The translations under genes and the position numbers were made by a program. A stretch of 64,000 nucleotides of DNA, taken from assembly GCA_977862235.1 (NCBI GenBank), contig OZ374557.1:2170001-2234000 (forward strand), read 5' to 3'. This stretch comes from Dudresnaya verticillata (lineage: Eukaryota). The notes below the pieces were generated by a model. It was not told where the DNA came from and ran no database searches. It saw only the letters and a program-made list of their open reading frames with translations. Below are positions 2,084 to 64,000 of this stretch, piece after piece (position 1 is the first letter of the stretch; each line of letters begins with the position of its first letter).

Positions 2084-3432
2084 CAACTCTGCATTTTTGT
2101 AAATATTGAGGTATAGGCTACTGCGTCGTTGCCAACATAACATCGTAATATTAGTGCATCATCTCTACGACAGCCGTTCGAAGAGCTGTGTTCCGTTAAA
2201 AAATAGTATTTCTTCACTGTACCAAAGGAGTACTAGCTCTTTTCTCCGCTATAGCGGCTTTCAAGTATACTTAACTGCATTCAAAGTATGCCTTGAGATC
2301 CATATTTCCCGTTCCCGGTCGGGTGCAACTGAAGGTCATATTCTCCTTTGCAGCCAGTTTAATCGATCTAAAACCTCTTTTGTGCTCTTGAAAGGGCTTC
2401 CTCCTCGCTACCCCGGTCATTGTAGGGTCGGATTTACGATGCTCCGAAGTCCTCAAGCTCTTCCTGAGACGACGCGCTCGCGATGCGACGCTTCTACCAG
2501 TGCTCGTATTTTTGTCAAGGAAGGAGACTTCCTGCTGACGACATCACCGTATATATGGTGGAGCTAATGCTTGGTTGAATTGAGAACGTTGCGAATGCCC
2601 ATTCCTTCCATTACGCCATGTTATACCACGGTATGGTGGTTGGTTTACATATTCCTTCGCAGTCGTGAATGGGTGAGCTGTAGGGCGATCTTTCCCCCAT
2701 TCTGCCGCTATCCCAGAAGCATACGTGCAGGCAGTCCCGTTCGCGGGACAGATGGGTGCTTTTTGCGGACGGTCTTGCCCTAGCCTCACATAGAACATCT
2801 GTGACGATGGTTATATGTCGTAATGCCCAATATTGGTTAAGTTAATATTGTGTTGGTCCCACAAACAACACTGAATTTTACAGCTTCAGATTGTTCCGAT
2901 TTGAACAGAATCAAAAACACCCCTCGTTTCTTACATACATTCGACAGAGGAGAACGACCTGAGAACAGCGGTGGAAACGGCGTGCTCTAAAGCCGAGCCG
3001 TTCGGAAGTTATAGTCGTCCGCACACAGCTAAATGCGCCCCTAAAATGTCCCGAATTTCCGCTGACATTTTCCGGAAATATTTCCCAGAAATTGCCCCGG
3101 GGCCATGCAAATGGCCCGCGTGCCAGGCCCGACTTGCCGCAATTTGCCACCGGGCCCGGGCCGCCCTTGGACACTGCGAAGTATTCAAGATCCCTGTGCA
3201 CGGCCCATCTGCTCACATCGCAGCTTTCGTGCGTCATTACTGACGACTCCGTACTTTTTATTGTACCTATTTTCGGGTTGAACACCGTCGAGAAAAGGAC
3301 GGGCTGAGTTTGTATTTGAGGTGGTGTTCTCTCACCGCGCAGTGCTGCACTTACCATGGCGAGCGCTCATTTCGAGCGAATACCAGGTTCAACTGTTTTG
3401 CCCGGAAATAATTCTGAAAGCTATGTCGTCTG

Positions 3433-3891
3433 TTGGGGTTAAACGCGACAGGGGAGATCTTGAACATTTCCGCGCTGCAGGCGAGAATGTGTCTACAAGG
3501 TCTGCGGAAACCACCGCGAAAGGCATCTGGTCAGTGCAGGACATGTATGTGTCATCCTGGTGAATCCAATGATGGACTTATTCAGCGCGTTGGTGTGGAT
3601 CCCATAATCACTGCGATGATTGCAGCGGAAGAAGAAGGGAGACATATTGATGGTCTGGAAAAACTCGGATTTACCTTATACGACAGGACGATCTTTCCCA
3701 GTTTTAAGAAGAAGGGTTATGGGGAGGAATACCGTCGCCGGGCCCTGAAAGCTGCCTATTCTGCCGCACAGACCGCCGCAATGAACAGAGACCCTAAAGA
3801 ACCAAGTGCCAGCACTGCAGCTGGGAACTCTTCCAAGGTCTTCAGGAGGTGGCCCCGTTACAGAAGCAATAGAGATAGCTATTTGCCTTAA
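3433..3891 (+). pseudogene. ORF-X fragment, unknown cargo protein
   Basis: PGESNDGLIQRVG...EGRHIDGLEKLGFTLYDRTIFPSF...YGEE aligns with PDESDEDMVLRIG...EGKQFVGLEALGIRLFDWSVFPTF...YGKE at 24423-24893. Confidence 0.6.
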
Positions 3892-6800
3892 TTCCAAGAT
3901 GCCTGGGTACTGCAACTGCTGCCCGCCTGAATGCGAATGTGCCAATTACCTACCGGAACCAACTTTGTAGGTAGCTGTGTAACAGTCCTTGGAGAGTAGC
4001 TTCCGCCGGAAATCTGTTAAACGCAACAGGTGACCCGGCGTCACACCGACTAGTGTCACGTATTCACTTCCAGCTCGTGGTTCTTTCCCTGACACTGCGT
4101 CCCTCAGTAAGCAGTGAAAAGAGTGTATTGCATCATCCATCAGTTGTCCGGCAACCATCCATTGTTCGACATGCATCCGTTCGCGCGACATGCCGTCACA
4201 ATGTCGCACATGACAAGGGATCCTGGTACTGAGCCCAATTCCGGCCTGACCTTACCCGCGACCGGTGTAGTTTCACTTTCATCCTCTTCAGCGCCATCTC
4301 CCCCTTCCGGCCTTGATCTCTTCCGGACAGGGTCCTCGTGATCATCCCTACTTTTTGCAGTACGCGTTTCGCTGCGTCAAGTCTTTCTCTTGCTCCTGCA
4401 TGGTCTGATTTTCCTTTGGCGTCAGTCCTGTACCGGCCGCCCCTGCACTAATTCCATCGACTTTACCTCAACGGACGTTACCATCGGTCTCCTTTGCTGG
4501 AGTGGTTTGCTGTTGCAAAGCTCTTTTCGCCTCACCGAATACTTCTTTCGTCCTCGTAGCTTCGAATTCGTTCTTCGCTAGCCCAATGCATCGTTGGTGG
4601 GCTAGTCGGAAAATGTCAGGATTCTGTTCGATGGACGTACATGAACGCCCGGTCCGTAGCGCTGCAATTTTGTCGTCACGGTATCCCCGTAAGTATCAAG
4701 GACGGACCCTTCTTCCCCACAGAATGTTTCCATCATCTCAGATGTTAAGTTTGGGTTCTTCTACTCCGCGAGGACTGGAGACTTTGTAGAGCGCTTGTGC
4801 AGTTTGTCTTTCGGTACAGGGAATCGGGAAACGACAGCAAAACGGCGGCCTTCTGGGGATAGTATCGGGTTGTAGTTACTAGACAGGTCCGGTTTGAACC
4901 CCTGCGGACGCTTCCCTGAAGCGCTCGCAAAGACAGCAATCTCCACGGATTTTGAGGCATGCTGTTCCCACGGTGTGCTTGCATTGACTTTGTATCTTTC
5001 ATGAAGATGTACGGGTACGCAGGGCACGTGAACGGGTACTTCACAAATGTCTCACGAAACGTCGGAAACAGTAGAAAAGACGTAAATATAACAACTCATC
5101 CCCCGGAACAACAACCCTTCTGGCGAACTCGACAAGGGCCTTGCTCTCCTCATCACTGAGAAAATTGTCATAGTTCTTGCCTGTGCCTGATTGTGAACTC
5201 TTGGTACCGTAGGGGGTCCGTAATCAAAAGGTCGAACGACGTGCTTCCTTCATAGCGGAAGGAGGACTCTTACCTCTGCCACATCATCTGCAGACATGTG
5301 GTTTTCATTTGCTCCAGGTAGTCGATTCGCGCGACACTTCCGTTTTCGTCTCCTGTCTTTCCAGTATTCAGTCGTTTTGACTGCAGTGTTGATTCAGATG
5401 CGGCGGCTGCAGTTGCAGCATACATGCGACCACCAACACCCCCCGTCGCACCCTCCTCAGTACATGCATCAGCCTCTGATGCTGTATTCGGGTCTGTGCC
5501 TTCTAGTACTACTGGTGTATCAATAGAACCCACATGATCTGCTGTTGCAGCAAGACACGGATTCATTTCGTTTCCTACTCCGAGATCACCACTCTGATCA
5601 CCTTCTTGACGAACTGAATTCTGTTCCTTTTCTGAAGGTTATTCAGCACTTTCTGGGGCAGAGTGTTCCACCACGGTTTCCGTTCGCTGAGATACCTGAG
5701 CCGAAATGACGATGTTGTAAAGATACTTCTTGAGCTTCAGCGGAGCCTCTTGAGGGCAGGTGTCCCTGTACATCTGCAATACAGATTTCAACAGCTCATG
5801 ATCGTTTCCCCTGTTCATGGATATCTCAACATCCAGTTTCGCGCCTCCTTCGCATATTTGACCGTATATCTTCATGTACGGTGGTAATTCCTTTTGCTCG
5901 CGGACAAATTCAAACTTGCGCACCTCTCGAATCGCTGCACTGGACTTCTCGAATTGCTCGGTCGTAAACCTGTGCCCTATTGGTTTGAAATGATGGATTC
6001 TGGACAGTTCCCGCAGATGGTACAGAGTCCTAATCTGTATTTCTACGCCCTCGTCGGAAATCCCTGCGTTCATGAACGGTCGTGATGGCCGCAAAGTTGA
6101 TATGTGTGCGAAACGCTTGAAGACTCGACAGTCTACAGCTTGCATTACAGTCATCTTATCCACAGGCCTCCCGGAAGCGTGCAGCTGATGACGCGAGGCC
6201 ATCTGTGGTAACTCCTCGTTTATTATCTTCCCGAGCTCTGCGATCGTTCTCGTGTGCAGACGAAGTACCATGCCTGCTGTTCGCTCAATAATACTATCCG
6301 TGAGGTGTTTGCACCCATCGTACACACGTGCGACAGCCACAGCAGTTGAGGCCTTCTCGCTATTTATAGCCGTCAGTCTGTTCGATTCTTCTCTAAGCCC
6401 CCTCATCACGTCGTAAAATGCCGTCTCTATATAGAACGCGGAGTCATGTCTCTTGTTCTGATGTCTGGCCAGTTGCCTAAGCAGTCGAATGTTGGGCCCT
6501 TCTTTCAACACAGTGACCGGAGGTGCGAACTGTTTCCACTTGTGGTAATCTTCCTGGAAAAGTTAGAGTAGGGCCGTAACTCTGTGCAGCCCGTCCACAA
6601 TTCCATACCACTCAGAACGCGCTTCATAAGCCTCCTCCACCTGCTGCTCCGACAGGGTTGAGCCGTCAGGCTCCGAGAGGATTGAGCCGTCAGGATTCTG
6701 TTTGGCTCTGAGATAAGTCATGGTGTAACGACGTAGAGTACCGCAAAACGTCACAAGTATCGGTGCGTCCGATCCAGCTACGAAACTAGTGTTCGAGGAT

Positions 6801-7087
6801 CTCGAATGTGGGTTTGGGTCTCCGCGGAATATGATCTTCAGCCTTTCAACACCAGAACGGACAATTGGCCGTATGTCTGTCAGCGGGATACATGCCTTCA
6901 TATCAACGCGGATGTTGACAGACCCAGCCATCAACTCCGCGAACAGCACCATTGCTGGCTCTGGGACACTAATACCGAGTCGTTAGTCGCCAAGCACTGC
7001 AGTGCTCTTCCTTCTTCTCCCCCTGGCATGTTTGGGTGCGAGGAAGTGCGGGTTCTTGTTGCAGTTAGTTCAGTCCGCCACGAGACG
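3780..7087 (-). pseudogene. ParB-like / beta-class DNA amino-methyltransferase fusion, copy 1 (disrupted)
   Basis: ORF pieces 6563-6952 (WYGIVDGLHRVTAL, ParB-type DGxHR), 5639-6511 and 5270-5566; SFDLLITDP/YG at ~5205-5240 (DPPY broken by a frameshift); CPAYPYIF at 4745-5044; GSVLDTYGDTVTT..IAALRTGRSCTSIE at ~4625-4710. Confidence 0.75.
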
Positions 7088-7966
7088 TACTGGTGTAGAA
7101 TTACAACTGATCACGATGCCGCGTAGTGCAGAAAAGTGCTGAACAATTATGAAGAGAAAATAGGCTGCTGTACGCGCGCCTGAACACCCTAACCAGAACA
7201 AAACGCACATTGATCTGAGTCTGTACAAATTCCTTCATTCGCGATCGACTTGAAATTCGTATGCGAACACGATGCTCTCCTTTGAAGTCGTACAGTGCAT
7301 GTTGTCTGTGCTCGGGGCGCACAACGGTCCGCGGTCGGACTACAGACAGAATCCCGATTCTGAGTAGCTCAAGCATGCGAGAATTCGTGGCGGTATTGGT
7401 GTTAGTTCGCGGAAGGAAGGTTCCGTTTCACAAGAATGTGAAGGGCTGCTGCCCTTGAAGGGCCGCAGAATCTTCGAAGTTCGGATAGTCTGTATCTCTG
7501 CGCCGGGTTTTGCGACAAATTTGGAGTCCGTGTGGACCCAGGAACACTCGGAAAGGCTTCGCTCCCGATCGGAAGCGCAATACGCAATACTGCCAAGAAG
7601 AGAATGAGTTACATCGCACCGCGATGGCCTTTCCATGTCCCTCCAAGGGGCGGTTAGCGATGGCGACATGACGGGAACTGGGCACATGAAGCGGCGAGCT
7701 TGGGGATGCACGTGTGTGGTAGGGCTGTGGGCGCGAGCACTCGATGTCGACGGGTACGAGGCCGCGGAATAGGTTTCAGTTTGCGGTACATGAGAGAACG
7801 CAAAACGCAATACCAGTATTGACTAAGAGGGTTTCGGATCTCTCGAGATCAATATCAGTCTACTAGCAAATAATAATGCGAGATCTGAAAACGTGTATAG
7901 GTTTTCGCCGATGGAAAGTAACCCACTTTGCAAACAGATATCTCCCGTTAACGCACGCCGAAAAAT

Positions 7967-10700
7967 TCATAGGTTTCTATCTGGGCACATCTTTCGGATC
8001 GCGGCTGGCGGCCACGAACGTGTTGGGTGTGTAGGTCCGGTCTGCGGTCGGCCAATCCAGACTAGGTCCTGCGCCCTCCCCGTCCTAAACCTCTTCCTCC
8101 ACCGCGCCCCCGGGCCAGGTTTGTACGTACCTTTCAGCTCAAAGACGTTATCAATGTTCCAGTGGAAAGACTCTTCCCTGTCCATGTACACGTAGTCGCG
8201 CAATGCGCGAATCGATGCCATTTTTGTGGTTGAGTTGATTCGCATATCCTCGGTGCGCAGGCGGTCGTTGACTCTTGTAACGTCAGATGGGCTCCTGGCA
8301 GGCTTGTTTTGTATTTCCCGGATGTCTGGCACAAACAGAATGAACTCTTTCTGTTCCGATATTATGTCCAAAGCAGTGAAGTCATCGGTGCAATTAGCTC
8401 GTACTAAACAACCAGTGGCATAATGGGCGTTGGTAGGCGGGGAGCCAAGCACTCTGTTGAACTTGAAGAATGGGTAGTACGAAAAGGTTTCAACCCTGCC
8501 AATACATTGATCGGACTTGCATAAGCCTGAGAAATTAGCGACGTGCAGTAGTCTGTTCACTACAGGTGGCGGCGTGTATGGCTGTGACAATTCTGTCAAA
8601 AGGTCTTCCATGGTCACAGCCTCATTCCCCCGTAGGCACCTGGACGTGGAGCTAGAGGCTTGGTCAATGTCCACGTGTGTATGCCCTACGGGTACAACAC
8701 TGACGTGCACCTCCTTGAATACACACCACGCCACTAGACGCTCGTAGTAGAACATGAAGAATGTGTTTTTGTTCTCGCGCGAACAGTTGTCCACTTGTAC
8801 GTAGAGCGTGCCTCGCAACTCTGCCTTGTCCCTTTTGATCATGAGCCATCGGTGCCGTACTTCAGCTATGTGGTTTGCACCCGTTTCGAATTCCGCTGTC
8901 ATTGTGTACAGGTACAACTGCTTGCACGGTCCGTGCTCCAGCCCGCCGACAATCTTTGCCTTCAACGCGTGCCCTGTCGTGCTCTTGGTGGTCACTGGGG
9001 AGTGGGGCTGGCCGAAGGCAGACTGGTCTGCCCGGTCAATAATTAGCGAACAGAATTCCGCTGGGTACAGTTCAGCCATCTCGATCTTTTTGGCGTATTC
9101 CATCCTCTCTTTCATAACTAAGTCCAGATGTTTCCTTCGACGGCAGCCCAGCCCCTCAGTCTGTGAATTCCTGGGTTTACCGATGCGGTGGGCAACGCGG
9201 TTTTCTTGACTATGATCGTCCCGACGGCTGTCGGAAGGTTGTAGGAGCGGGCGTGAATGTGGAGCAATGGTCTCTAGCTCAAACGGAAGGTGTTTCGGAA
9301 AATTCAGGTTGAGACTTGAGACGTTCAGGTTGAGATCTGAGAAGTTCAGATCTCGGAAGTAGAGTTCTGCGTTATCGCAGCTTGGCTCGAATACACGCGG
9401 GAAGCTCGCAGCACGTTGGTAGGAGGTCCAGTGCGGTCAGCAAAAGGATAGGGAACAGGCAGACGGACGTCGGAACAGTGAGAGGGCGCTACCTCTCTGC
9501 TCGGTCGGTTCGCCGAGAGAGGGCTGCCTTTATTGTGGACGCTGTTCGCGTCCCGCTACAAAAGACAAGAAATCGGAGCTCTCGCGCAGCGAGAGGCACA
9601 GGGAGAACGACTTGCCGCGTGCTGTGTGGTCAGATCGCCACGCAAGCCGCCGGGTCGTGATGTGTCGGGGAGACACGACGGTGATCTCATTCTGATTGCG
9701 CATCAGGCGCGGCCTGTGAACCAGAAGATTATCACCCGTGTTGGAAATATCCAGGTCACGTGATATTTTTACAACGCCAGCCAAGTGGCTAAACGTGGCA
9801 CCCGGTTGCAGACCTGGCAGTGCTATGTCGCTCAATGGCGCCGTCATTTTCCGCGCAGCGGAACTCGGGTCAGGAGATCAACTACGCAGCCATTGCCGCG
9901 CAGCGGGTCCTGACCTGAATAGCACGTCGTAAATGGTAAGGATCAATTCAGGAGCTCAACGGCGCAGACGTTGCCGCGCAGCGGGTCCTAACCTGAATGG
10001 AACATAGGAGATGATGCTCAGGTGTAACCAGTCTCACTGGAGTTAGTATCAGCGTTTGAAAGGAGGCCACGTATGGTCTCACATTCTGTGCACTCTATGA
10101 ACTTGTGCGCCCTCCGCATCTTGATTCTACGACAGTGTTTCTTCGACGTGTCATAGAAGTAGCTCGGTACTGCTGGAGTCCGTTTTGGATACATCGTTTT
10201 GTCCTCTTCAACATACAAGTCATAAACTGCCTTTTCCTTAAAGTAAGGCATATGCAGCTCTTCAGCGTCTGGCATGCACTCCGCTGTGGATTCTGCCAGC
10301 ATTTCCAGAAATGTAATGACGACATCTCGCTCTTCGAATGGGCACCTCTCGCTCCACCCTCGACACCGCCCATCATAATTCGACGATCATTTGGAGTGCC
10401 CTTCACGCAGGCTTGGAAGTAGTGTAAGAATCAGAATGCACGGCGCAGAAAAGCGAAACACGCTGGCTTCCCGGCGAAATGAAACTTGACTAAGTCTGGC
10501 TTCAGTAGCGCCTCTAGGTACGCACACCGATCGTCAGCACCCATTACCTGCACATGTCGCGCTTCTGCAGGGACAAAAACCGGCTTCATGTCGATAAAGC
10601 AGTGCTCAGTGCCGCATTTCGTCCCCTTAATGTTATGTGCTTGCAGCTGCCGCAGCTGCTTCTTGCGCTAGGCGAGGAGATTGCCCTCGTGTCGCGTTCC
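7967..10700 (-). pseudogene. DDD-type DNA transposase, Sola/DUF7869-like, interrupted by an insertion
   Basis: 7967-9115 has SLIIDRADQ, LYVQVDNCSRENKN and VGHTHVDIDQ motifs; 10018-10302 has KFIECTECET (CxxC); a Cys-rich N-terminal remnant lies at ~10440-10680. Confidence 0.75.
9147..10018. mobile_element. ~870 bp unclassified insertion inside the transposase
   Basis: Flanked by CAG at 9144-9146 and 10019-10021; removing the insert and one CAG restores ETGYT-CRRRKHLDLVMKER in frame; internal repeats ccgcgcagcgggtcct(g/a)acctgaat. Confidence 0.6.
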
Positions 10701-12599
10701 CGTTTTGCGAGTGCAGCGAGTATACTTGCGTTTTCCGGCACGCTGACCAGTTTCTATGCATGCTTCATCATCGGTCTCTGAATTCCGTTCGGCTTCCGAG
10801 GATTCATTAGCTGACGACCGTCCAGCATTATGTTTGTATGTGCATTCTTTTGATGCACCTGAAATGGTCCCCTTGCGCCTCTTTCTATCATGACCACGCT
10901 TCGTGCCACTGTCCTCCGCAGAACCGGAGACAGGTGTTGAAACCCGTCTTCCTCCGCTGCTCGTCCGTTCCCTGACCTCCTTCTTGGGGGAAGGTGTAGG
11001 TGACGCTTCCCGTTCAATGTTACTCTCTGCATCCGAGCTATCGGGGCTATAATCGGATGGTGCCTCACCATCCGAACCATATTATACCGCTGATGAGTCT
11101 TCCCCTTCTCGACGAATGCTACGCGTGACAACTGGAAAGCGGTACACCTTCGGCGGCCGGGGTAAAAGCTGCGGTTTCCTCTCCGGTGTATGAAGCAGAA
11201 CTTCCCCTTCCTCTGTGTCCACAATCACTCTCTTTCCCGCATGGGCATGGCCATCGCTTGCACCGCTAATGTCCCCTGCGCCCGGCTTTTTGCTGGCCTT
11301 ATGAGGCGAGTTGTTCTTGCCGCCTGCCCGTTTCGGCTAGGCCATGGCTCCCCACCGTTGGTTTAGGCATAGCAGTCCTGTTCTGGGTTCGTAAAAGTCT
11401 GGTTTTCGTGCGGGCATTGCGGTCTGACCTGCGTTCGTCCCCAGCTAGTCGCATGCTGTTGGCATCCCAAGCGTGGAAGACGTTTGACAGCTGTCCAAGT
11501 TTTTCGGGAACATCGTCAAGACTTTTGTATATGTAAGGATAACGACCGGACGCAAAGCGCTCATGAATATGTACCTTGCGAATCACCACTAGCAACTCGT
11601 CTCTCTTCTGCTACTCTGACAGTTTGTGATTTTGCAACACCACGCAATACTTGCCGGAACTGTCTGCTCTTTGCGGTGTCGCTGCCTTGAATATGTCAGC
11701 ATGGCCCACTTCCTCGTCCCTCATCAGCAGCACTACCTGATCTTTCTTGGCCCCCTCCGGCATGGCTCACGGGCACAGAAGCATTAATCGAAGTTTTGCA
11801 GTGAAGGCCTATACTGGCGTGATTTCCTCGAGTCGGAGGGTCTTTTGCGACAGATGTGGGGTTTTGCCCGCGCACGACGAAGCCTAAGCGAGACTTCTTT
11901 TGAGAGTGGTGCGGGGTGTTGTGGAAGATGGAGAGGCCCGAGGGATGATAGTGGGCAGCCGTACGCTGCCGAGGACGCGATCACAGCGTTCCAGCTCTTT
12001 CGTGGTAACCGCGAAACAGTTTCGCGTTGCCGTTTCGCGTTGCACTTATTTTGCGGTTTGGAGTTCAATGCGACTGAAACTTGCAGCTGTTTGGCGGTTT
12101 CTCGGCGTGTGTCAGCGAGAAAGTTATGCTGAGTATGTGGAGGGGGAGGGAACTCGGCACCGCGGGTGAGCTTAAACGTGGGCTGTGCACATAGTGCACC
12201 GAGCAGTCTTCTACGCGTTTTTGCAGTGAGGCGAGGTGGCGGTTCCTGCGGGGCTGTTAAGCAGTCTTGTGCTAGACGAGTACTAAACATGGAGTTCCCA
12301 GGTGATTTCCAAGCGAAATATCAGAAAGATTGGCCAAAACGGATTCTGTTCGGAGATACAGAACCCAATATTGGCACAGGAGGGCCCCTCGCAGCTACAC
12401 AGAGTCCGACACGCAGACCCCAGACGATTTGGGAAACGCTTGTAGCGTCAAAATATCCCGGCATTCAACCTGAAATCATCACCTGAAAGCACCACTTGCG
12501 TTACCATCACGTCTTCCCCCCTTCATCCTGCCCCCCGCCTTCACCCTGCTCCCCGCCCGAGTCGAACGCAAAAAGCCGCGACAAGAGTCCATGTCCTTT

Positions 12600-13285
12600 C
12601 AGTGCAGCAGGCCGAATTCACCGCCGCCCCGCCCTCCCTCAGCTCACATGAGTCGCTCAAAATGCTCAGCTTGAAGCAGAACAACCTCAAAGGCCGGCTT
12701 CTGGCCCCCATCTACCCCCTAACCTCACTTGGTTCATACGCACTTCCAATTCGCTCACAAGCCTCTCCTTTGACCTCCCTTTTCTCTGTTCTCGCGCCCG
12801 CAAGCTAATGCTCTCCAACAAATCTCTCACCTCGCTACTACCGTCCTTCGCGTTCGAGAAGACCCATTTGGATCTTCTGCGCCTGTCAATAACAACTTCA
12901 CCACCTTCCCCCGTGAGGTCCTGAAGCTGCCCCGGCTCAAGTGGCTCTCTGTAGCGGGTAACCCAAGCACGCTCACGTCACCGAGCTAAGCTTCCGACCT
13001 ATTATTACACACTCTTGTCGACGTGCTCGCGGAAGCATGCGACGTTGACTGTAGCAATCCGGACGGCACCGGTGCCTCTGAAATAGCCTTTCCGAGTGTG
13101 TATCGCAATTCCGGCAAAGCCGTCGACGTGAAGCGCTTCGCGGCTCTGAAGTGTAGCGACGGTGCTGCCCCGCAGGAGGTTGCTGTCATATTGGCAGTGC
13201 GAGACGTGCCTGTTGTCGTGCATGCCGAGGCGTACAGCGTGGGGACGGACGCGGATGGTGCGCTGCGGTGAGTCGTGCTCGTCAC
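12600..13285 (+). pseudogene. LRR-protein kinase relic truncated by an LTR
   Basis: Frame-switching translation gives LKMLSLKQNNL, RKLMLSNKSLTSL and LKLPRLKWLSVAGNP, then kinase N-lobe-like GTGASE...VDVKRF...SDGAAPQE; ends at the LTR at 13286. Confidence 0.6.
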
Positions 13286-14120
13286 TGTGGCATAGAGGTC
13301 AGATCGAACTGACGTCTAGCACGGCTGGTCTCATAGTCGCACCCAGACCCGTCGAAGGATGGTAGCGGTGGTGGTAGAGCGGTGGTGTCGGCCGCGCGCG
13401 CCGTTGACGGTCGCGGATCAACCGCGTCGAAGCCTGTGCGCGCACGGGGCGGACCGTACGCGGGGGGCAGCGGCCAGATTCCTGCGTCCCCGTCGTGGAG
13501 CGGGACGAAGCGGACGGTAGGGAAGGAAAAGAAAATCCTAGGCGGCTAGGGAAAGAGGGAAGCCGTAGGGCGAAGGACTGGGAAGAAACCCAAAGTAGAA
13601 AGGGGCAAGCCTGGCGTAGGCTGGCTTGCCATGTTTACTCAAGCCCAGAGGGGACTACTAAATAGACTGCAGGGCCTGTGTCGGCACCAACCCGGGAGGT
13701 GCGCCGGCGCGCCCTGACACGCGTCGACGCGTACGGGTAACGGTAACCCAGGGGCGCGCGTGGGCGAGACAGTCCACACGTACTCAACGGCTCGACGCCG
13801 GAGTACGCGCTCGCGTGTCACGCGCTCAACGGTTCTACGCCGGAGTGCTTGCGCACGGCACGCGGGACAGCAGGGCATTCGACCCCCGCTTACATTAGAC
13901 AGTGCTGCACACTACACAAAAATAATCGTAGAAATTACGTGGGAGTTTTAGTGTCACACGCGTACACGTACACGCGCGGGCACCACAGCGCACTTCCTTA
14001 CAGTTCAGCGGTGTTTCGGCGCCAGCGGCTGACAGCGTGCGCACAGTGGTGCACACGTGGCGCAACCGGTCTTACAGCTGCGCGTGCGTGGCACAGCTGG
14101 TCCTACAGCTGCGCCACACA
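13286..14120 (-). repeat. 3' LTR of a minus-strand Ty3/gypsy element
   Basis: tgtggcatag...cacaca followed by a reverse-complement polypurine tract accccccctcaag (14121-14133); diverged homolog of the LTR at 33431-34159. Confidence 0.75.
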
Positions 14121-14447
14121 ACCCCCCCTCAAGCGCGAACGCCTCGGTCGCAACCGTACGACGCGCACGCTGTGGGGTGGCCAAGACGGCGCACGAGATT
14201 GGCCAGCGGGCCCCCCCGGACTTCCGTCGGTGACGCGCGTCGATGCCACGTCGGGTGTGCCCGCGCTGAGCCGCGACGGGCTATTTATGGAGCCGTCTCT
14301 GCGGCTCCGAAGGGGGTGGTCTGGTCATCGCTCACCACGACCACCAATGCCCCCCACGCGTACAGCGGCCTGTTGACCAGTGCCATACGCTCCAAGCTTC
14401 AACGCGCTCAACTTCTTTCTCCCCCCGTGGACAGCGTTGACGTGGCG

Positions 14448-24277: not shown

Positions 24278-24422
24278 TATGGGCCAAGGTCGAATTCGAC
24301 CAATCAATCTGATTCCGAACCAAGGGACAATACTTGGAGAGGCGCGTCGGTTTGGAATAGGCGTGCATATGGCCGTACCTTTCATTTGCGGTAAGGTTAG
24401 CAACGCAAAGGCGTCGACGATT

Positions 24423-29378: not shown

Positions 29379-29389
29379 CTGAGATATGT

Positions 29390-36010: not shown

Positions 36011-36011
36011 G

Positions 36012-47820: not shown

Positions 47821-48227
47821 CGGTGTACCTGACAACGGCTGTGAGCTGTGGCTGACGTCAACGACACAAGCGGAACCCATAGAGAGAAGAGGCCGAGCGT
47901 TTGGGCAAGGGCTGGCGTCGGTGGAGCAGGGGATGTTAGTGTGCTGGGAACAGTGAGAGCTGAGACGGCTGTGAGCCGGCGTTGAAATAGGCACACGCCC
48001 GTCTGGCGCTTCCCGCAATCGTTACCGATCGTGCCGACGGCGACGGCTCAAGTCGCGCTGACTTGGCATTACCGGTGAGACGGTCGGAAGGAGGCGTGTT
48101 CAAACGCGCGGCTATTGGGCCAACGAACGGACCGAGATTTCGAATCGTAATGAACACAGGCTTTTGAGGCAGCATCGCTGTACAGCTCTCTACTGAGCGC
48201 GGTCACTCAGTTTTAAGAAGGGGGCCG

Positions 48228-48887: not shown

Positions 48888-49310
48888 GTTTGTCGTCGGC
48901 GCGTCGCTTGCAATGCGCCACGCCTCATTCCACCACATACGGACCGTCAGCCTCGGTACTCTCCGATATCGAAATACAGTTTACTTCAACGTTCTTTCAG
49001 GGCGTCTGCGAACTGCTCGGGTTATCGAACGTATTTCCCTCGGCGTACCATCCGCAAACGAAAGGGAAAGTAGAAAGCTACATCTGGACTATCCTTTTAA
49101 TGCCAGGTAACTACGTGACTGATCATCAAAACGATTGGGACCTGTATTTCTCTGCAAAATTACTCGCGAATTACAGGTGGATGTCACGTGTACGGCTTAC
49201 AGCCCCGAGCGGCTTATTCTCCCACAAACTACTCTCTGAACACTCTCTTCGGCTGTGCCTGGCTTGGTCGGCCTTTCAACGGTCCCCGTACGGACATCGT
49301 CGCTTCTGAA
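48888..49310 (+). pseudogene. Old gypsy integrase fragment (target of the chromovirus insertion)
   Basis: YGPSASVLSD..QFTS..FQGVCELLG...SAYHPQTKGKVE; joins RYGKF at 34930-34948 across the TSD. Confidence 0.75.
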
Positions 49311-54057: not shown

Positions 54058-54374
54058 TGTAGTAGAATGGCCACGGGGCCAAGTAGAACGGAAACAACCA
54101 GGACACCTGCCCTATGGCCAATACTGTACTAGCTTTGGTAGCTCGGGGGAAAAACGGAGTTGGTAGAGACTTGGGAAAAATGCACAAACCCTAGGGAAAA
54201 GGGAAAAAAGAAGGGCGGCGCTACCCAGCTCGCGCAGAGCTTCCGTCGTGCGGAGACAAGGCTCGTAGAGCGCCTGAAAGGAGAAAAAGGTACGGTGATT
54301 CGGTGTATTCCAGAAAAAAGGGCAAAAGACCCAAACCTACCGTAGGGTTCTATTCAGGAGGCCCCTGCTACTCA
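54058..54374 (-). repeat. Partial LTR of the 32608-33144 type
   Basis: tgtagtagaatggccacgggg...gctacccagctcgc...ctgctactca shared. Confidence 0.85.
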
Positions 54375-54875
54375 CCCCCCCGTGCTGGGCCTCGTTGGTC
54401 AATACCCTCATCCAGAGGTTCGTCACCGACGACTTGATTGCCGACGCGCACAACCGACTGACCACCGCCCGGCATCGGGACGCCGAGTCATAACTCGAGT
54501 TCGACTCTCGTCTATAGGGCTACGCAGATGACTGTGCCGGCGTCTACTAAGACAAGAATGTGGTGAAGTGAGCCGTGGCGCGCATGCGGCACGCCGACGG
54601 TGAGCCAACCGTAACGGGTGATGTGGCAATACGCCACGCTGATGATCTGGCAAGGTGTAACCGTGTCGGATGTTGTTCGCATTGTTGTACGCTGGTACTC
54701 ATTGCTGTACAGCACTGTAGCGCACCAACCATACCGGATTAATTGTAGTGTTTATTCTTTATTTTTAGTGAATATCTGTACAGTATGTAGAGTACTGCGC
54801 CATCCAATGAGAATGCTGCGCATGTCCGCGTCGGAGATTGGGACCAGCAGGGCCGATTCCACTATGGGTCCAGAC

Positions 54876-57800
54876 TGTGGTGCAACGCCAAGGGGCCTCC
54901 AAAACGGGCGCAACCGGCCGGGCCAAGTGGCACAGGCAGCCCAATCAGTGTGATATAACGAAGTCCACGGAGACGCGGGGAAGTTCCGTACTGTAAGGAA
55001 TGGCCTCGGAGCCTAACGAATGGCCTCGTAGCCTAACGGAGAAACGAAAAGGGGTCGTAGCGTGGTAGAGCGGAGCGACCAACACGAAGGACCACGGTGT
55101 CAACGTATTCATGTGCGGAAGGGAGAACTCGAGCGATCGATCACCGGGGATGACTCGGGGTGTGCGGGGCTATCGAAAGCGAGGCTCTAACGTATCCGCG
55201 GTCACGAAGACGAAGACACCGAACTCGAAGAAACAGGCGTTTACCGAAGACGCCGAGGTCCGGGCGCTAGTCGCTTGCCGGAAACCCTCGGAGGTTGTGC
55301 CAGACGACTGGCTAAGTAGTACTACGTGAGCACGAATGCGCGTCAACTCGGGAGACGGTTCGTACTCGAATGATTCGTAACGGCCTCGGTGCCATCGAAC
55401 GGTCGCCTCACGTATGGTGGCGGTTTCGAAGTGCGCCAGCGATGCATACGGAGGTGCGCGTGTCTCGTGGGCCCCGGTGCCGTTACGCGCGGGAAACAAC
55501 GGGAAAGTCACGAAGGTGTCAGCGATTTCGTATCGGGTGCGCACTGTAATGCGAATGCCATCGTGGCGCGCGCGATCACGAAGTCGGATCGGGATTCGTC
55601 CGGAGGTGTCAGCGATTTCGTATCACGTGCGCGCTGTAATGCGAATGCCATCGTGGGGTGCGCACCGTATGCATCGCTGTAATACGTTTGCCATCCTGGC
55701 GTGCGCATTCACGGAGTCATTTCGAAATTCGTATTTCTCGATTATTTTCACGTAGGCCACGGAGTCGTTTCACGGATAGTGTCTATACCACACGGCCCCC
55801 CCTCAAGAGCGAACGTCCCGGTCGCGGGTTACGAATTACGAAATAGCGTGGCCCGGTGTCCCTCGGTGGAGCGCGGATAGAGCCATCCGAGTGGCCTGCG
55901 CGGAGATTGCTTCGAGCTCACGTCGTCGCGCAGCGGTGCCTCGGGGCTTACGAATTTGAATTCGGATCACGTGTGCGATGGCGCCTTCGTATTGGGTAAT
56001 CACGAAGATATTTTTGCGTACGTAGAACGGGTTAGGGCTGCGGCGCCGTCCGTCGACGCGTGCGCACGCGGATCACGGAGACGGGGCGCGAGCCGCGTGG
56101 GTTATTTCAACTTCGTGTTGCGCTGGGTCCGAGCCCCTTGCTTCTCCGTTCAACGCGCACACGCACAACTCACTTCAGCTCCTTGGCTTTCGGTCTTCGC
56201 GGTCCGTTTGCTCCTTCGTGTGCGCTGGTGCGTCCTCTCGCGTCTCTTCGCGTAGGCTCGCTCCGCTCCGTGGCGTTCGTGTGGTTGCTTCGTTGGCCTC
56301 GGTGGTTTGCGGTGGTCGGCTGCGGGTCGTGGGTCTCGGTGTTGGGGCAAGTGTTGCGCGTCCTCCGTGGTTTTCGGTGTTTTTCGCGGTGTTTTTCGTG
56401 ACGAGCTTCGCGTAACGATGTCGGACACGGGTCACGAAGAGGGAAACGGGTCCCAGGGAAAACGTGCGGAGGGCGTTCGTCGCCGCCTCGATGGCTAACT
56501 CGCGGCTGCTACGGCGGATCAGTTGGCTCCGAAGCCTTAGGATCCTTCTTCGGATGTCGCGGGCCCTTCGGGTGGTGACTCCGAATACGTACCGCGGACT
56601 CTCGCGATTCCACACGTTGGGGATATCGGGGCCTCGGAGTCAGCTGGGATCACGGATCGCGATAGTCCTTTCGTAAGTTCGGGCGGCTCGAATCCGCAAT
56701 TCGTGAATCGGGGTTGGCAGCCGAGTGCTTCGTTGGGTCCTCCGAAATTCGGGACAAAGGATGAGAATGCTCCGAGGCTGCCGTCTGCGCAGCTGCGCTT
56801 CGCGTGGGACTAGTTCGCGGTCTCCGGAGTTACTCACGAAGAGGTTGCTGCCTACGATGGCCGTCTTCGTCCGGATCTCGCTCGCTTTCGTGCACTGTGC
56901 GAGGGTCGTGATGATAACGGAGCTGGCGTATTTCACGTATTCTGGCCCCGTGGCCCCGTGTATCCGACTCCAATGGGTCTTCCGTGCGACCTCTCCTACG
57001 TGACCACGGTTGACGAGGTCGCTTACGTAGATGCGTGCGCGCACGTGCTCCTGGCACCGGGTGCGGGTATCTCCGTGGACTCTCCGGTGGTTGCGATTAC
57101 TCGCTTTCGTGATTATCCGGAGTTCGAGTCCGCCGCGGGAAACGTATGGCGTCACGTAGACTCGATTTCGCGCATCCTCGGGGTGCACATCGGTGCCGGA
57201 GACTGGGCGCTATTTCGTGGCGCGGGCTCGATGCCTGATCGCGTGGATACGAATTCGCGTCTCGATGACCGAGTGCCTCTGAGCATGTTCCCGAGTTCTT
57301 TCTGGCTCGATGCTTCGTGTATTCGGGCCCCCGCGGGCTTGGTCGTGCCACCTCCGAGGGTGATTCGTTATTTCAGGCTCGTGGTCGACCTGTTCGCGGA
57401 ACCTACGAAGAAGTGCTTCGTGCGTTTCCTGGATTCCGAATATCGCTTCGAGCTTGGTCGCGCGTTGATTTCGGATGTCACGCAGCGTCAATACGTATGG
57501 GTGCTCGATGCTTCGTTGCGTAGTTTCGTTCGTGATCGTTGGTCGAAGTCGTTCTCCGAGGATGGCGGTTATCCGGATCTTTCGCTCCGGGGCTCGGATC
57601 GCGCGATGCCGTTCACGAAGATACTCGCGATTGCCATCGAGGCTGCGGATTGGAGGGAGCTCCAGTCGACTCGTCACGATTTTCCGACGGGACAGTGGTC
57701 CCAAGTGGTCGGACACGACGTGGGCTCCGGGGCCTGGTTCGATTGGCGACATAACCGTCCGTCACGAGGAGGGCGCGGTCCGCGAGCTGATCCGTTTTCG

Positions 57801-59863
57801 CATCCGAGTGCTGCGGTTCGTGCCATCGGAGGCGAGGTTGGTCCGTTGCCGCGCGTTCCTCGTTCTGTAGCTCCGGTTCCTTCGTCTTTGCTGACTCCGG
57901 GGCCATCTCTTGGCACCGGGGCTGTCGCGTTGGTGCCGAGCGCTTCGGGTTCTTCGATCGCGAGTCTCGACATGCGCTGTCCTACGGATATTCGCAGTCT
58001 CGACTCCGTGAGCGATGCGTGTCGCGAAGCGGGCATCACCCCCGATGGGACTCTTCGACAGCTGCTGGACGATCTCGGCGGAAGTTTCCTTCGCGCGGTT
58101 ACGGAGGTGAGTCGCCTTCGTAGGCAGCTTCGTGATCGGGATGCGGAGATAGCGGACCTTCGTCATCGTATTCGCAACCTCGAGTTGAGCGGTGAGCGGT
58201 CGGCGCGAAGATTACGGTTACCCGAGTTACGATGCTCCACGTTACGGGTCTGGCTCCGGAGGCCCTTCGGGCTTCGGACCCAGCGGTGGCGACGGTTACG
58301 ATGGTCACCGCGGACAATCGCAGACATCGGATCCGTATGCGCCGAACTTTCTTCGCGTGACTCGAGATGAAAACGGAAACGATCCTCGTGATAATCCGCC
58401 TTACGACTCTGCAAACCCGTATGGTCGCTCGTAATTGTACGTATTGTTAGCACCGAGGCTTTCTCTTTTTGCTTCGTAGCTGCGTGGTTTCTTGTTTTCG
58501 GTATCGAGCTCCTTGTTCTCGGAGTTCACGGTGGCGGGGTCTCGGTCTCGTGGTACCGTCTCGAGTAAACGTTTTTCTCTTTCTCGACTTTTCTTTTGCC
58601 TCGTAATGATAGTTACGTAGTTGTTGGCGTCGTAGCGTTAGCTTCGTAGCTTCTCGTAAACGAGCTTCGTTCTCAAGTGTGCGAATCTGTAACTTGTGCG
58701 TGGCGCGGCTTCGTTGCTCTCGACTCCGTGGTCTACGTGATGCGTGTTCCCTTCGCGGAGTTGAGTCATCGAGACTTCGTGAGATATGCGTGCACGGCCC
58801 CCTCCTCAATACGAAGGTGTCCGCGCCGACGTGCTTGGGGGGGTTGGTGGCGGATACGTGCTCCTCGGAGAGCTGCGCGGGTGTTGCGATGACAAGTGCG
58901 TGAGCTCCGGGGCTGGCGCGTGCGAGCTCCGAGGCAAGCGGTCATCGGGCGCACGGCGAGGGGTTGAGTCGGCATCTGCGCTGCTCCGAGGCAAGCGATC
59001 GAGCGACGTTGGCGTGATGCGCGGGTTGTGAGGGATGCGAAGGCGAAGTGCGCGTTGCGGGTGGCATCGGCCTCGGAGTATGACGTCAGGCGCGTATGAC
59101 AAATTACGGATAGGGCACCGTGTCCGTCCGTCCGTCGCGGTGTCAGCCCCTGTAATGCGAGTGCCGCGGTGCAACCGGGTGCGCGCGGTGCGCCTTTGCG
59201 TATTTCACGAGGGGCGCTGAGTTGGGGCGGGGGTGGTCGACACCGCCCGACGGCGTGGAGCGCAACTTCGTGAGGGCAAGGGCTTCGTGATCGCGTCTCG
59301 TTGATGCGGTGGCGTGTCGTCTCCGAGGACCTCGGTGTCGTGCGGCGCGCGGCCGAGAGTGGCGCGGCGGGTTGCCGCCGAGGGTTGCGTTGGCGTGCGT
59401 CGCGTGCCATCGAGAGTGCGCAGCTGCGGTAGCGTCATGTGCGAGGTTGCGGCCATCTGCTCCGAGGCATGCGTGTGTGTCGGGGCTGCGGTCGTGCACG
59501 ACGGAGACGCGTCGTGAAATACGAAGTCGAGGATCACGAAGTTGGGCCGCGATGTGCGCTGAGTGGCACTGGGCGATCGGATGCTCCGAGGCAATCGAAA
59601 TGAGCAGCTACGTAGTGAGCGCGTGGCTGGCGAGAGCGGGGTGTGGCTCCGGGGCCTTTCGAGTGATGAGGGCAGTGCGACGTGCAATCCGGATGAGCGG
59701 GAGCGTTAATCGTGCGACGAATTGCGGAACACGAAGTCGGGGCCACGGAACCACTCGGGGTCCCAGTCGGAGAGCCATTCGTGGGCGAGTAGCACGGGAT
59801 CACGCGGGTCCGCTTGGCTTCGAAGCCTTGCGAAGTAGCGCGAAACGAGTTCTTCGGGCACGT
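54876..59863 (-). mobile_element. 3' part of a minus-strand gypsy element: LTR 54876-55792, PPT 55793-55807, antisense-ORF region
   Basis: tgtggtgc...ataccaca then cggccccccctcaag (reverse-complement PPT as at 14121); interrupts the 54660-54875 repeat. Confidence 0.7.
56418..58434 (+). pseudogene. Antisense accessory ORF (core 56958-58370, frameshifted at both ends)
   Basis: 470-aa frame with PTPMGLPCDLSYVTT, coiled-coil-like VSRLRRQLRDRDAEIADLRHRIRNLE, and a G/P/Y/D-rich tail 58192-58434. Confidence 0.65.
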
Positions 59864-60174
59864 AACACTAATTTCGCCGGCTACAGAATTTCCAAAACAG
59901 AACAGAATTTTTTGAGGGTCGTTGAATCCCGGCGTTCGATAGCGCGTTGGAAAGGGGGCGCTACCCTGAGAATAGTGGTGCAAACAGATCGGAGCAAACG
60001 CAAATAGTTTCGGAGTTATGGGCTCCGGTATATGGGGCCCCCCGGGTCGAAAGTTCCCGAAAGTTGTGATTTTTCCGAAAAGTTTCAATTAAAAATTCTC
60101 CAGAAATTGATTCTGGCCCGTCCCGCCGCCCGCGCCCCCACCCCCCGACCGCACACCGCATTCTGGCGACTTCT

Positions 60175-60929: not shown

Positions 60930-61900
60930 AATGGAATGAAGCGCATTGCTGTGCTCATGGGAGAAGGCCACCACTTTACTATCTCTAAAGTTAGCAATCG
61001 CTGCTATCATACTTCCGCATATACAGCCCTTCACAACTAGACAGTTCATTGTTCAGGCTCCTCATGATGCACATCCTCACCTCCGGTTTCATTGCGCGGC
61101 TGTTGGACATGTAGAATTTTTTGCAAAGCAGACGCGTGTAGCGGTCCAGTTGATACGTGTTCTCTCCGCCCCTGTGCAGCGTTTCGACGATCGCGAAGTC
61201 TATAGCATGGGCTGCACCGTGTACGTACTTGCCCCTTCCCACGAGAAAGATTTTCTTCAGCAACAACCTGTACAACTTTTCCAAAGCTTTCTGATGGTGG
61301 GAATGCTCCATCATCGTCTTGTCTGCGTAAAATTGCTGTGATGATTCCCAAGCCATTTGGGCACGATCCAGGTCATTGTGGTTGTCCAGAATGTCATCGT
61401 CACTGCTAGGGCTTTGGTGCGTCCATTTTCGTACCTCACGATTAAGATCTTCCTCCATCCGACGTTTAACGGTGTTGTACAGCTTTTCCACATCCAGAAG
61501 CAAGCCATCCATGGTCTCAATACAGCGGTATTCTGGTCACAGCATATTATGGTGGTGAACGAACACTTCGTTTCATCTCAGCTCTCTTTCCGAAATGGCC
61601 GAGGCCTTTAACTGCGATAGGATCACTGCGTGCCTGGACAATACATGGTCCATCTTTCCACGAGCTCACGGGTGTCCATTTCATATGCGTTGGAGACAGC
61701 CCTGGGCGCACTCCGGTACGTAGTCGATCTATCACTTACTGCCAATATGCCGCAACATTGCCAACAACTGCAGCAGTACGGTACATGTGCCACACTCGCG
61801 ACAGCCTTCCGTGACAGATTCTGTTTGGTGGACCAAATATAACCCCCGCGTTCATAGTACGGCACGTGGAAGCACTGGCGTTATTCGAGTAAATGGTGCC
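60930..61900 (-). pseudogene. Unknown cargo ORF-Y (fragmented)
   Basis: Protein-like ORFs 61623-61865, 61547-61735 and 60991-61512 in series. Confidence 0.4.
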
Positions 61901-62020
61901 TGAACGACGTCGAATTCATGGACCGTGGCGGAAGCAAGACGCAAAGACATGTTCAGAATACAAATGCTCGAGAAATGTTCAATTCGGCCTATGACAATAG
62001 TACTGTACTGACTATAATTC

Positions 62021-64000
62021 CTACCCAATCTTCTTCATGTTGCGCAAGTCCCACGAGAACAACAAGCCGTTTAGGCCCTTGAGATTGGCAGGAGGGTCCT
62101 CTACTCCCTTGAATATATACGGATACGAACTTAGCTCATACTCCGCCATGACCTTCAAACTGTACACGACCACAAGATGCTCCCCTGGTTTGGCAGATTC
62201 TGACAGATCGTGGCCGTGCAAGCGTTCATTCCAGTTCCCTCCTGGAGTCTTTTCCGGATGCAACACGGCCTCCCCCACTTCCTTATCATCTGCAAGAAGC
62301 GTGACTCTGTCTCCGGCCTTGGGCATTGCACAAGGTTCAGGTTTTTCCTTCTCCTGCACTTTTCATTCAGCTCCACACTTCCTACAACTATGTCTTCACT
62401 CCTGCCGTGCTTCTCGATACTCTCTTCGGGGTCATCCAATGCGTGCTCGGACGGTGTCGTCAGATGGGACATTTCAGGTCCCTTCCTCGTTACGGAATGG
62501 TTTGTTGGTTGAGCAGAATCTATTATGACAACACTACCTCTTGCTGCCTCACCGATACCATTCAGTTCGTGATGAGCACTTGATTCCAAACGTTTACGAC
62601 CTGTCTTCATTTCATATGCTTCCGTGGCAAGCCTACGTAAACGTTCAGCCCCCAGCTTGAATGTTTCGATCTGTGATTCGATTAGTGTACACCGACGATC
62701 TGTTCTGAGAGCTGCAATCCCAGTCGTCATGGTTCCGCTGTGCATATCCAGAACTGATACGCCCTCCGGACAGAATGTTGTCATTATCTCCACAAGTACT
62801 TCGGGAGACTTCTCTTCGACCAGAACTGGGGACTTGGTGCCTGGGCGTAGCAACTTGTGTTTCGGTGTTGGTAGAGAGGACATGCACGCGAATTTCCGCT
62901 TTTCTGGGGAGGGGATGCAGTGATACTCGCTCCTAAGGTCGAGCGAGAACCCTCCGCCATGCTGACCTGGGGCACGCGCCATGACGGCTATTTCCACACA
63001 GTTCTGGGGCATACCGCTCCCCCGATGTTCCTGCATGGTCTTGGGGTCTTTGGAGAATACGAATGGGTATGCCGGGCACATGAATTGTGCCTTCTTCAGA
63101 GCATCGTGGAATACACTGAAGTTCAGGAATGACGTGAAAACAAACAACCACCCCCTGCTACAAGTACGCGCCTCGAGATCTCAACTATCTTCTTAATGTC
63201 TTCCTCGCTGAGGTAATTATCGAATGACCTCCCCGACTTAGACTGCGATTTCGGTGTACCGTATGGTGGATCTGTGAGGATTAAATCGAATCGTTTGTCA
63301 CCTTCCTTCCTTACGGTACTGTTGTAGCTCTGCCATGTCATCTGAAAGCATGTCAGTTTCATTTCCGCAAGATAATCTATTGGAACAGAAAGCGATCCGT
63401 CCTCCACCGGCACAGCCTTAGTACCCATGTTGAGGCGAACGGACTGCTTTGATAACACAGTTGATATAGTGGGGTCTGTGGGACTCTTTTCCGGCACAGA
63501 ATGGTCTTTGGCTGCACATGCAGCTGTAGGGTCTGCGTTCTGCATGGGTGCCTGTCCAGATTCTGCTGGTTCGCGACCCTCTTCCCTTTTCGAATTGGTT
63601 GATGTTACTAAGTCTGAACCCTCTTCGTCGTTAGAGATTCCGGTAGCGTCCACCTGCGGTGACAACGTGCAGTCCAAATTCTGTTGACCGTCAGAATCTT
63701 TTGCTCCACATTCATTGGAACCCGGGCGGGTCATGATAGCGTCATCACGTCTGCCTTCTGTCGAATCCATCACAGTTTGCATATCTTTGTACTTCTGCAA
63801 CTTCACTGGGGCCTCTTCCGGACAACACTCTCTGTACATCTCAACTATTGTTTTCAACAGTGTACGGTCATTACCTCGATTCATGATGACCTCGACGTCC
63901 AGCTTCGTAGTGTATAACAGGTTTTCTCTTAATTTACTCATGCCTAACGGCCATTCTGTCCCCTCCCTCATTGCTTCAAATTTCCGACTCTCGGAAAGGG
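62021..64000 (-). CDS. Beta-class DNA amino-methyltransferase fusion, copy 3 (C-terminal ~660 aa; two 1-nt homopolymer frameshifts)
   Basis: RFDLILTDPPYG (motif IV), EEKSPEVLVEIMTTFCPEGVSVLDMHSGTMTTGIAALRTDRRCTLIE (motifs X/I/II), C-terminal domain 62021-62359; no in-frame stops once the frames are joined. Confidence 0.8.

Follow-up and report, generated by a model that had tools for sequence, protein, structure and literature searches.

Decayed ParB-like/methyltransferase genes of likely Sola1-type transposons in a repeat-rich stretch of the Dudresnaya verticillata genome

Has a eukaryotic DNA transposon family taken up a prokaryote-type DNA methyltransferase, and which enzyme moves the elements that carry it? 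These questions are raised by a stretch of 64,000 nucleotides from Dudresnaya verticillata (assembly GCA_977862235.1, contig OZ374557.1, positions 2,170,001 to 2,234,000 of the forward strand), referred to below as the window and numbered from its first nucleotide. The window reads as eukaryotic DNA rich in repeats, with a G+C content of 47-68% in 2-kb bins and no N. In the reading preferred here, to which a probability of roughly 0.7 is assigned, this repeat-rich eukaryotic genome holds three decayed copies of an accessory gene for a ParB-like/methyltransferase protein; the elements that carried them were cut-and-paste transposons, likely of the Sola1 type, with a DUF7869 protein as the transposase. 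They likely represent, in decayed form, a type of element already described from Ectocarpus in 2025, and so are not new.

A first-pass annotation of the window had described three homologous minus-strand genes, each lying inside a homologous terminus that begins with AACAC and each in the same orientation relative to it. This description was borne out by stop-to-stop open reading frames (ORFs), by tblastn and by leave-one-out nhmmer searches, with the three homologous coding regions found on the minus strand where they had been placed (copies 1 to 3; Table 1). Copies 1 and 2 share 43% amino acid identity over 274 residues (47-57% in the N-terminal part), copies 1 and 3 share 51-56% within the methylase part, and copies 2 and 3 share 31% over 307 residues; self-blastn gave no DNA-level match among the three at E <= 1e-10. 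The domain order is a ParB-like part, a helical part, an acidic linker, DPPYG (in copies 2 and 3) and the S-adenosylmethionine (SAM) motif region. The ParB-like motif reads WYGIVDGLHR in copy 1 and WFGIVDGVHR in copy 2, while copy 3 holds DPPYG, the SAM-motif region and a C-terminal domain of about 110 residues (62024-62362).

All three copies are pseudogenes, and nothing in the window is functional. In copy 1 the frame changes several times, once inside the DPPY codons, and TAA codons stand in frame at 6563, 5639 and 5270. In copy 2 the frame changes near 21700 and is interrupted by TAA at 21103 and by TAG at 21334 and 21580. Two frame changes were found in copy 3, one within a run of G near 63150 and one preceding the C-terminal domain. 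An alternative genetic code was considered for the in-frame stops and rejected, given that two kinds of stop occur, that conserved residues are replaced and that frame shifts lie alongside; splice sites at the GTAAG-like stops were likewise rejected, the homology continuing in frame across them. Because conserved residues are replaced and the homology runs through, the in-frame stops are mutations and not introns or a variant code.

Homologous ends were aligned at four places, namely 2867 (+), 17205 (+), 26949 (-) and 59864 (+). An nhmmer model built without element 1 recovered 2867-3023 (E = 1.9e-11), a model built without element 3 recovered 59864-60022 (E = 7.4e-10), and a model of elements 1 and 3 together recovered the two ends of element 2 (E = 5.7e-10 and 2.1e-5). 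Nowhere else in the 64-kb window did the leave-one-out searches give a match up to E 10. Each gene copy is transcribed toward its nearest AACAC end, and the distance from the 3' end of the gene to that end is 0.9-1.1 kb in element 1, about 2.4-2.8 kb in element 2 and 2.2 kb in element 3. Elements 1 and 3 are partial in the window.

Element 2 was the source of the earlier claim that one copy is bounded by inverted ends of about 690 bp, and this was confirmed: the two ends, of 688 and 695 bp, align over 700 columns, 89.3% alike (E = 0.0, 913 bits), and both begin AACACCCATTTAAGCC. The element is flanked by CCCC before AACAC and by ACCC after GTGTT. Three of these four flanking bases agree, which is weakly compatible with a 4-bp target duplication and is expected by chance in about 1 in 20 cases or more. 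The DUF7869 family profile detected no homology inside element 2, and element 2 is therefore likely a non-autonomous derivative of 9.7 kb. A Pfam scan of 50 ORFs of elements 1 and 2, 32 of them from element 2, returned nothing meaningful, with no capsid, polymerase or packaging gene. Near the ends no arrays of palindromic binding sites were found; what was seen were scattered short inverted repeats and one palindrome, a perfect one of 34 bp at 18088-18121 (AACCGCAACTTCGTTGA and its complement), which lies about 200 bp beyond the left inverted end of element 2. Elements 1 and 2 also share a small ORF, here called Y (36% identity over 58 amino acids by tblastn, E = 1e-9), for which no Pfam match was obtained and no relative was found among the fetched metagenome loci or proteins. 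In element 3 an intact ORF of 181 amino acids with an ATG start (60994-61536, minus strand) lies between copy 3 and the AACAC end; it has neither a Pfam family nor a relative in the window.

In order to place the gene product in a family, a profile of the window copies was searched against 1.84 billion protein representatives. This exhaustive search revealed 688 relatives at E <= 0.001, of which 306 reached 1e-10 or lower and 106 reached 1e-30 or lower, whereas word-indexed protein searches with pieces of the window gave no match. Many of the listed relatives are about 850-1190 amino acids long, including all 21 that were scanned with Pfam (887-1186 amino acids). N6_N4_Mtase (PF01555) exceeded its gathering score in 15 of these 21, at 27.0-60.2 bits and over nearly the whole profile; four fell below the gathering score and two had no match. 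The highest score was that of relative P0006 (60.2 bits, profile positions 2-220 of 221). Within the window the same profile matched copy 2 at positions 2-60, a range that takes in the DPPYG of copies 2 and 3, and copy 3 at positions 165-218 (E = 5.8e-4 and 4.1e-4); these are halves of a broken gene, with 20.3 and 20.8 bits against a cut-off of 26.7. A family profile of 60 sequences matched the DpnA structure 5hek over the whole domain (E = 3e-17), then CcrM 6pbd (E = 8.4e-9) and M.PvuII 1boo (E = 2e-4), with M.MboIIA and M.RsrI weaker. The aligned sequences show the beta-class order, in which motif IV precedes motif I, and D-P-P-[YF] is kept in 9 of 16 aligned relatives. The domain order and the beta-class assignment of the first-pass annotation thus both stand. 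Taken as a whole, the gene product is shown to be a protein of about 1000 amino acids with an N-terminus of ParB/sulfiredoxin fold, a helical region resembling DNA-binding ones, an acidic linker, a beta-class N6_N4 amino-methyltransferase and a small C-terminal domain.

The ParB-type N-terminus proposed from the window alone was upheld by fold and was not recovered by profile. Pfam ParB_N (PF02195) matched 0 of the 21 relatives at E <= 0.001 and none of the window pieces at E <= 0.01. An AlphaFold model of relative P0008, made from the family alignment, had a predicted local distance difference test (pLDDT) score of 86.2. With this model as the Foldseek query, all 14 rows listed within ranks 1-15 were ParB, Noc or KorB at a probability of 0.96-0.97, with weak E values (best 0.037). 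At the top of an independent search against representatives, VIA-align gave Z 9.4 for PadC (root-mean-square deviation (rmsd) 2.8, 97 residues aligned), 9.2 for the N-terminal part of pNOB8 ParB (216 aligned), 8.2 for sulfiredoxin and 7.8 for KorB, where values of 8-9 are just over the background of 7-8 stated for the tool. A motif of the DG.HR type is present in the family, with D145 and G146 nearly invariant. At the level of the predicted fold, the resemblance to ParB holds.

Past selection, which had been suspected from the retention of motifs in very diverged copies, was confirmed by comparing the copies codon by codon in tblastx segments free of gaps. The identity found at codon positions 1/2/3 ranged over 0.52-0.67/0.66-0.76/0.35-0.38, being 0.53/0.67/0.35 for copies 1 and 2, 0.67/0.76/0.38 for copies 1 and 3, and 0.52/0.66/0.37 for copies 2 and 3. 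The proportion of synonymous differences was 0.79-0.86, which is saturated, and nonsynonymous divergence (dN) was 0.36-0.53, a value biased downward by the choice of segments on protein similarity. Because third codon positions are near random while positions 1 and 2 are conserved, these data show that the lineages of the copies diverged long ago under purifying selection and that decay came later. In a FastTree phylogeny of 290 columns and 64 sequences, read without regard to support values, copies 1 and 2 grouped with relatives P0003-P0006 and P0008; long pseudogene branches may draw these two copies together.

A candidate for the enzyme that moved the elements lies beside copy 1, where a DUF7869 gene is preserved in three pieces in three frames (Table 1). 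It matched the Pfam model at E = 1.2e-38 and the family profile at E = 1.8e-158, 4.2e-33 and 7.6e-10, and in its 489-amino-acid ORF 7970-9436 three motifs are preserved, DRADQ, VDNCSRENKN and GHTHVDIDQ. The ESM Atlas clusters closest to this ORF are 100% eukaryotic. Between its first two pieces the gene contains a non-homologous stretch of about 800 bp (roughly 9226-10029), which may be an intron or an insertion, with a 78-bp tandem duplication (82-88% alike) within 9870-10013.

The same pairing of genes was found outside the window. Among 11 metagenome loci encoding methylase relatives, locus L005 carries an intact methylase gene of 994 amino acids (4864-7848, +) head-to-head with a DUF7869 gene of 914 amino acids (191-2935, -), and locus L001 has the same head-to-head layout, with a DUF7869 protein 41% identical to that of L005. 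The window gene is 41% identical to the neighbour genes of both loci (tblastn). No element ends could be defined on L005 or L001, though both genes are present on each. At one contig end of L005, by the methylase 3' end, three overlapping short inverted repeats on TTGGCCCG...CGGGCCAA (8059-8164) are candidate binding sites. The longest contigs of P0003 and P0275 are equal in size (8748), as are those of P0006 and P0202 (8751), which suggests that each pair lies on a common contig.

DUF7869 relatives numbered 507 at E <= 0.001, and PF25273 was present in all of the best 120, which are those listed. The structural model of DUF7869 (pLDDT 85.9) aligned in VIA-align with the integrase of simian immunodeficiency virus at Z 8.5 (rmsd 3.0, 133 residues aligned) and with the Mos1 catalytic domain at Z 8.1 (rmsd 3.3, 162 aligned), then with IstA, Metnase, TnsB, Sleeping Beauty, Tn5 and Hermes; integrases and Mos1 span Z 8.1-8.7. 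All Foldseek rows belonged to the RNase H-like superfamily. Across 59 DUF7869 sequences, D156, D159, D278 and D280 are invariant, as are acidic residues in DGADQ and GHTHEDIDQ. The modelled fold is that of a DDE transposase/integrase, and DUF7869 is likely a DDE/D transposase of the Sola1 type. A full-text literature search for 'DUF7869' found no paper. Together with the ends of element 2, the DUF7869 linkage and the DDE fold agree with the earlier proposal that a eukaryotic DNA transposon with inverted ends carries the methylase gene.

A further tie between the two genes is the domain of about 110 residues that terminates most full-length methylase members as well as copy 3 (E = 1.3e-14 in copy 3). 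This domain also opens two of the fetched DUF7869 proteins, P0275 (residues 4-109) and P0277 (residues 52-156), the best 120 of the 507 being those listed. In the window a remnant of it was recognized by profile at 11302-11610 (E = 1.7e-8) and 11614-11766 (E = 0.0067), and it shares 35% identity over 68 amino acids with 62018-62221 (tblastx). In relatives that carry the domain, Pfam gave no match to it at E <= 0.001, and no significant sequence match was obtained in the PDB (best E 0.24). Its occurrence on both proteins hints, from the sequences, that they may have had a common target or that methylase and transposase may have been in contact. A domain common to the methylase C-terminus and some transposase N-termini was not found in the available literature passages.

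The closest published counterpart is Sola1-1_Ec32 of Ectocarpus. In the available passages of its description (Dinatale et al., Genome Biol 2025, PMC12477816), this is an autonomous element of 21.5 kb with a 1104-amino-acid gene for a ParB-like and N4C/N6A DNA methyltransferase protein on the strand opposite the transposase; its termini are AACCG-CGGTT, its inverted ends measure 282 bp and its target duplication is 4 bp long. The authors suggest that such accessory proteins, by binding and modifying the transposon that encodes them, may constitute a new class. As far as those passages go, Sola1-1_Ec32 and the window elements are both DNA transposons with inverted ends beginning AAC and an accessory gene of this type, of about 1100 amino acids, by the transposase, and the flanks of element 2 are compatible, at three of four bases, with a duplication of the same length. 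The window differs in having a 9.7-kb element with AACAC ends of 688/695 bp and no transposase, along with two partial elements; its copies are all dead and 30-57% identical to one another, whereas the Ectocarpus element, compared by description only, is autonomous.

Two other groups of eukaryotic genes are also comparable. According to the accessible text of a preprint on Bostrychia, which are red algae (bioRxiv 10.1101/2025.02.11.637652), PAG2 of Plavaka elements combines a methylase with SET and PAG3 combines ParB with a 2-oxoglutarate oxygenase; the carriers are EnSpm/Plavaka elements and also Zisupton, Mutator and Fanzor elements, and its authors propose that the element binds and modifies itself. 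PAG2 and PAG3, as described there, share with the window giant DNA transposons bearing a PF01555 methylase and ParB-like domains, but the domains lie on separate proteins, whereas in the window family they are fused in one protein linked to DUF7869. The consulted part of Iyer, Zhang and Aravind (BioEssays 2016, PMC4738411) describes a different group of adenine methylases linked to ParB, from chlorophytes and chytrids, and derives the chlorophyte-type fusion of Dam with a helix-turn-helix of ParB type from phage ParB-terminase loci. Chlorophyte-type Dam and the window family are, on that account, both candidate adenine methylases of eukaryotes that bear a ParB-type module at the N-terminus, the chlorophyte type belonging to the M.EcoKI/TaqI-Dam group and the window family being PF01555 beta-class; that part of the paper gives no transposon context for chlorophyte-type Dam.

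If the Sola1-type reading is right, the transposase would cut at the inverted ends and reinsert the element, with a 4-bp target duplication as the result. An intact accessory protein would bind the DNA of its own element through the ParB-like part and is predicted to methylate, probably, adenine at N6 on that DNA; adenine is the predicted target because of DPPY and because the nearest solved relatives are DpnA and CcrM. The methylation is in turn predicted to guard against silencing, leaving the element transcribed or able to transpose.

Several observations weigh against this reading. Not one of the three copies is intact, and in no case does a transposase lie within a single unit bounded by both ends, since element 2 has none and element 1 shows one end. 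The genes of element 1 stand in tandem, unlike the head-to-head pairs of L005 and L001, and the adjacency of DUF7869 and copy 1 could be a secondary juxtaposition. That DUF7869 is the Sola1 transposase is drawn by analogy from the Ectocarpus description of gene pairing and from the similar ends, and is put forward as likely. To these are added the chance level of the flank match, the low ParB scores and the failure of the ParB_N profile described above. On the side of the enzyme, D-P-P-[YF] is absent in 7 of the 16 aligned relatives (DPPC, DPPS, EPPA, DPAY, EPPH, DPGC and EPPS), and L or M replaces the second FxGxG glycine throughout the family, which reads D-x-Y-A-G-T-[LM]-T-T where DpnA has D-P-F-M-G-S-G-T-T. 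Catalysis is not assured, because of these two departures; judged by sequence, some members of the family are plausible active methylases, and activity in the others is doubtful.

The strongest alternative takes the accessory protein to be mainly a DNA-binding cofactor that binds or bridges the ends and so aids transposition or the retention of copies, with methylation dispensable or lost; contact with the DNA would be made by the ParB-like part together with a degenerate methylase fold. The motif losses just described, and G-T-[LM] in motif I in place of the G-S-G of DpnA, are what such a cofactor would explain. It is nonetheless considered unlikely, as DPP[YF] is kept in the other nine relatives and in window copies 2 and 3, the methylase domain passes the Pfam threshold in most of the scanned relatives, and it has evolved under constraint.

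Less likely again is that the AACAC elements belong to another superfamily or were mobilised by another enzyme, the DUF7869 gene being an unrelated neighbouring insertion. Such an origin would suit the presence of both ends without DUF7869 homology in element 2, the tandem genes of element 1 and a window densely mixed with transposons; it fits poorly with the adjoining of the two gene families on two independent metagenome contigs and, in its available description, in the Ectocarpus element, with the 110-residue domain common to both, and with the published Sola1 ends, whose AACCG and 4-bp duplication resemble AACAC with CCCC/ACCC.

The fusion itself may have come from elsewhere. Phage and prophage fusions of ParB_N and N6_N4_Mtase have the same order as the window family, motif IV again preceding motif I. 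In length the eukaryotic proteins are about double the phage fusions, with an added helical region of about 250 amino acids, the acidic linker and the C-terminal domain, and they lack a Pfam ParB_N match. Phage fusions of this kind were also the nearest named ESM Atlas clusters (scores 0.86-0.88, taken as leads only). In tblastn against 50,697 phage records the methylase domain alone matched (23-28% identity), and none of the records reached 80% coverage of the query. A scan of 185,579 prokaryote genomes, limited to two family motifs, gave 73 pattern matches, of which none was confirmed. A phage-type origin of the ParB-methylase fusion is plausible. That the elements are endogenised virus-like ones (giant virus, virophage or Polinton-like) with a phage-type ParB-methylase, an option left standing by the first-pass annotation, is very improbable and gained no support: the long inverted ends and the frequency of such fusions in phages would suit it, but none of 18 pattern matches in viral_contigs was confirmed as a relative, the phage matches are confined to the methylase domain, the scanned ORFs hold no viral gene and the linked gene is a DDE transposase.

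A wider claim can be built on the Sola1-type reading, namely that methylase and Sola1-type transposase work as a single functional module widespread in eukaryotes (at least 688 protein clusters), that the 110-residue domain leads the two proteins to one target or to one another, and that N6-methyladenine (6mA) on the DNA of the element serves as a 'keep open' self-mark against silencing, with about half of the lineages now pure binders. This would reach well past the window, and it is offered as a tentative and rather doubtful extension.

The remaining features of the window are mostly repeats (Table 1). A Ty3/gypsy chromovirus at 36384-43575 (+) has gag-like, reverse transcriptase, RNase H, integrase and chromo parts, and a diverged, inverted, partial copy lies at 28079-32045 (-), with 66-69% DNA identity and 52-75% protein identity; in the inverted pair, 28079-31670 and 36837-40446 are 66-69% alike. 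Segments in direct orientation, 77-87% alike (32608-36012 with 48227-48889 and 54058-54875), are a separate family of dispersed repeats, and 13283-13803 resembles 33428-33987 (73-75%). Between elements 1 and 2, at 13000-17200, the G+C content is 58-68% and long overlapping ORFs run on the plus strand; 15675-16214 shows 28% protein identity to ORF 56814-58367. An open frame of 554 amino acids (50379-52040, +) encodes a glycosyltransferase family 90 (GT90) domain (E = 5e-26) and is possibly a host gene amid the repeats.

Table 1. Positions of the principal features in the 64,000-nucleotide window.
Feature	Position	Strand	Remarks
Element 1 end	2867-3037	+	starts AACAC; sole end of element 1 in the window
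Small ORF Y of element 1	3418-3888	+	homologous to 24426-24935 (-)
Copy 1, ParB-like/methyltransferase pseudogene	3946-7087	-	family homology 4471-6982; pieces aligned to positions 32-844 of the family profile
DUF7869 gene beside copy 1	7970-10667	-	pieces 7970-9436, 10021-10386 and 10434-10667, in three frames
Remnant of the ~110-amino-acid domain	11302-11766	-	immediately upstream of the DUF7869 gene, as in P0275 and P0277
Element 2	17205-26949		9745 bp, both ends present; inverted ends 17205-17892 and 26255-26949
Copy 2, ParB-like/methyltransferase pseudogene	19971-22102	-	DPPYG kept; C-terminal methylase half mostly lost
Small ORF Y of element 2	24426-24935	-	
Element 3 end	59864-60044	+	starts AACAC; by alignment and leave-one-out nhmmer
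Copy 3, ParB-like/methyltransferase pseudogene	62024-64000	-	5' part outside the window
Gag-like ORF	3-1529	-	third gag-like ORF, at window start
Gag-like ORFs	~30279-30836 and ~37649-38221		within the inverted gypsy pair
Ty3/gypsy element	40308-43575	+	reverse transcriptase, RNase H, integrase zinc-binding and chromo domains

The window itself adds no working copy; intact relatives exist, such as the 994-amino-acid ORF of L005. The ParB-methylase family is large and old, and lineages saturated at synonymous sites coexist in one genome, with the methylase gene retained even in a likely non-autonomous derivative (element 2). Transposons with a DNA-modifying enzyme of their own could set their own epigenetic state, which would matter for the dispute over what 6mA does in eukaryotes.

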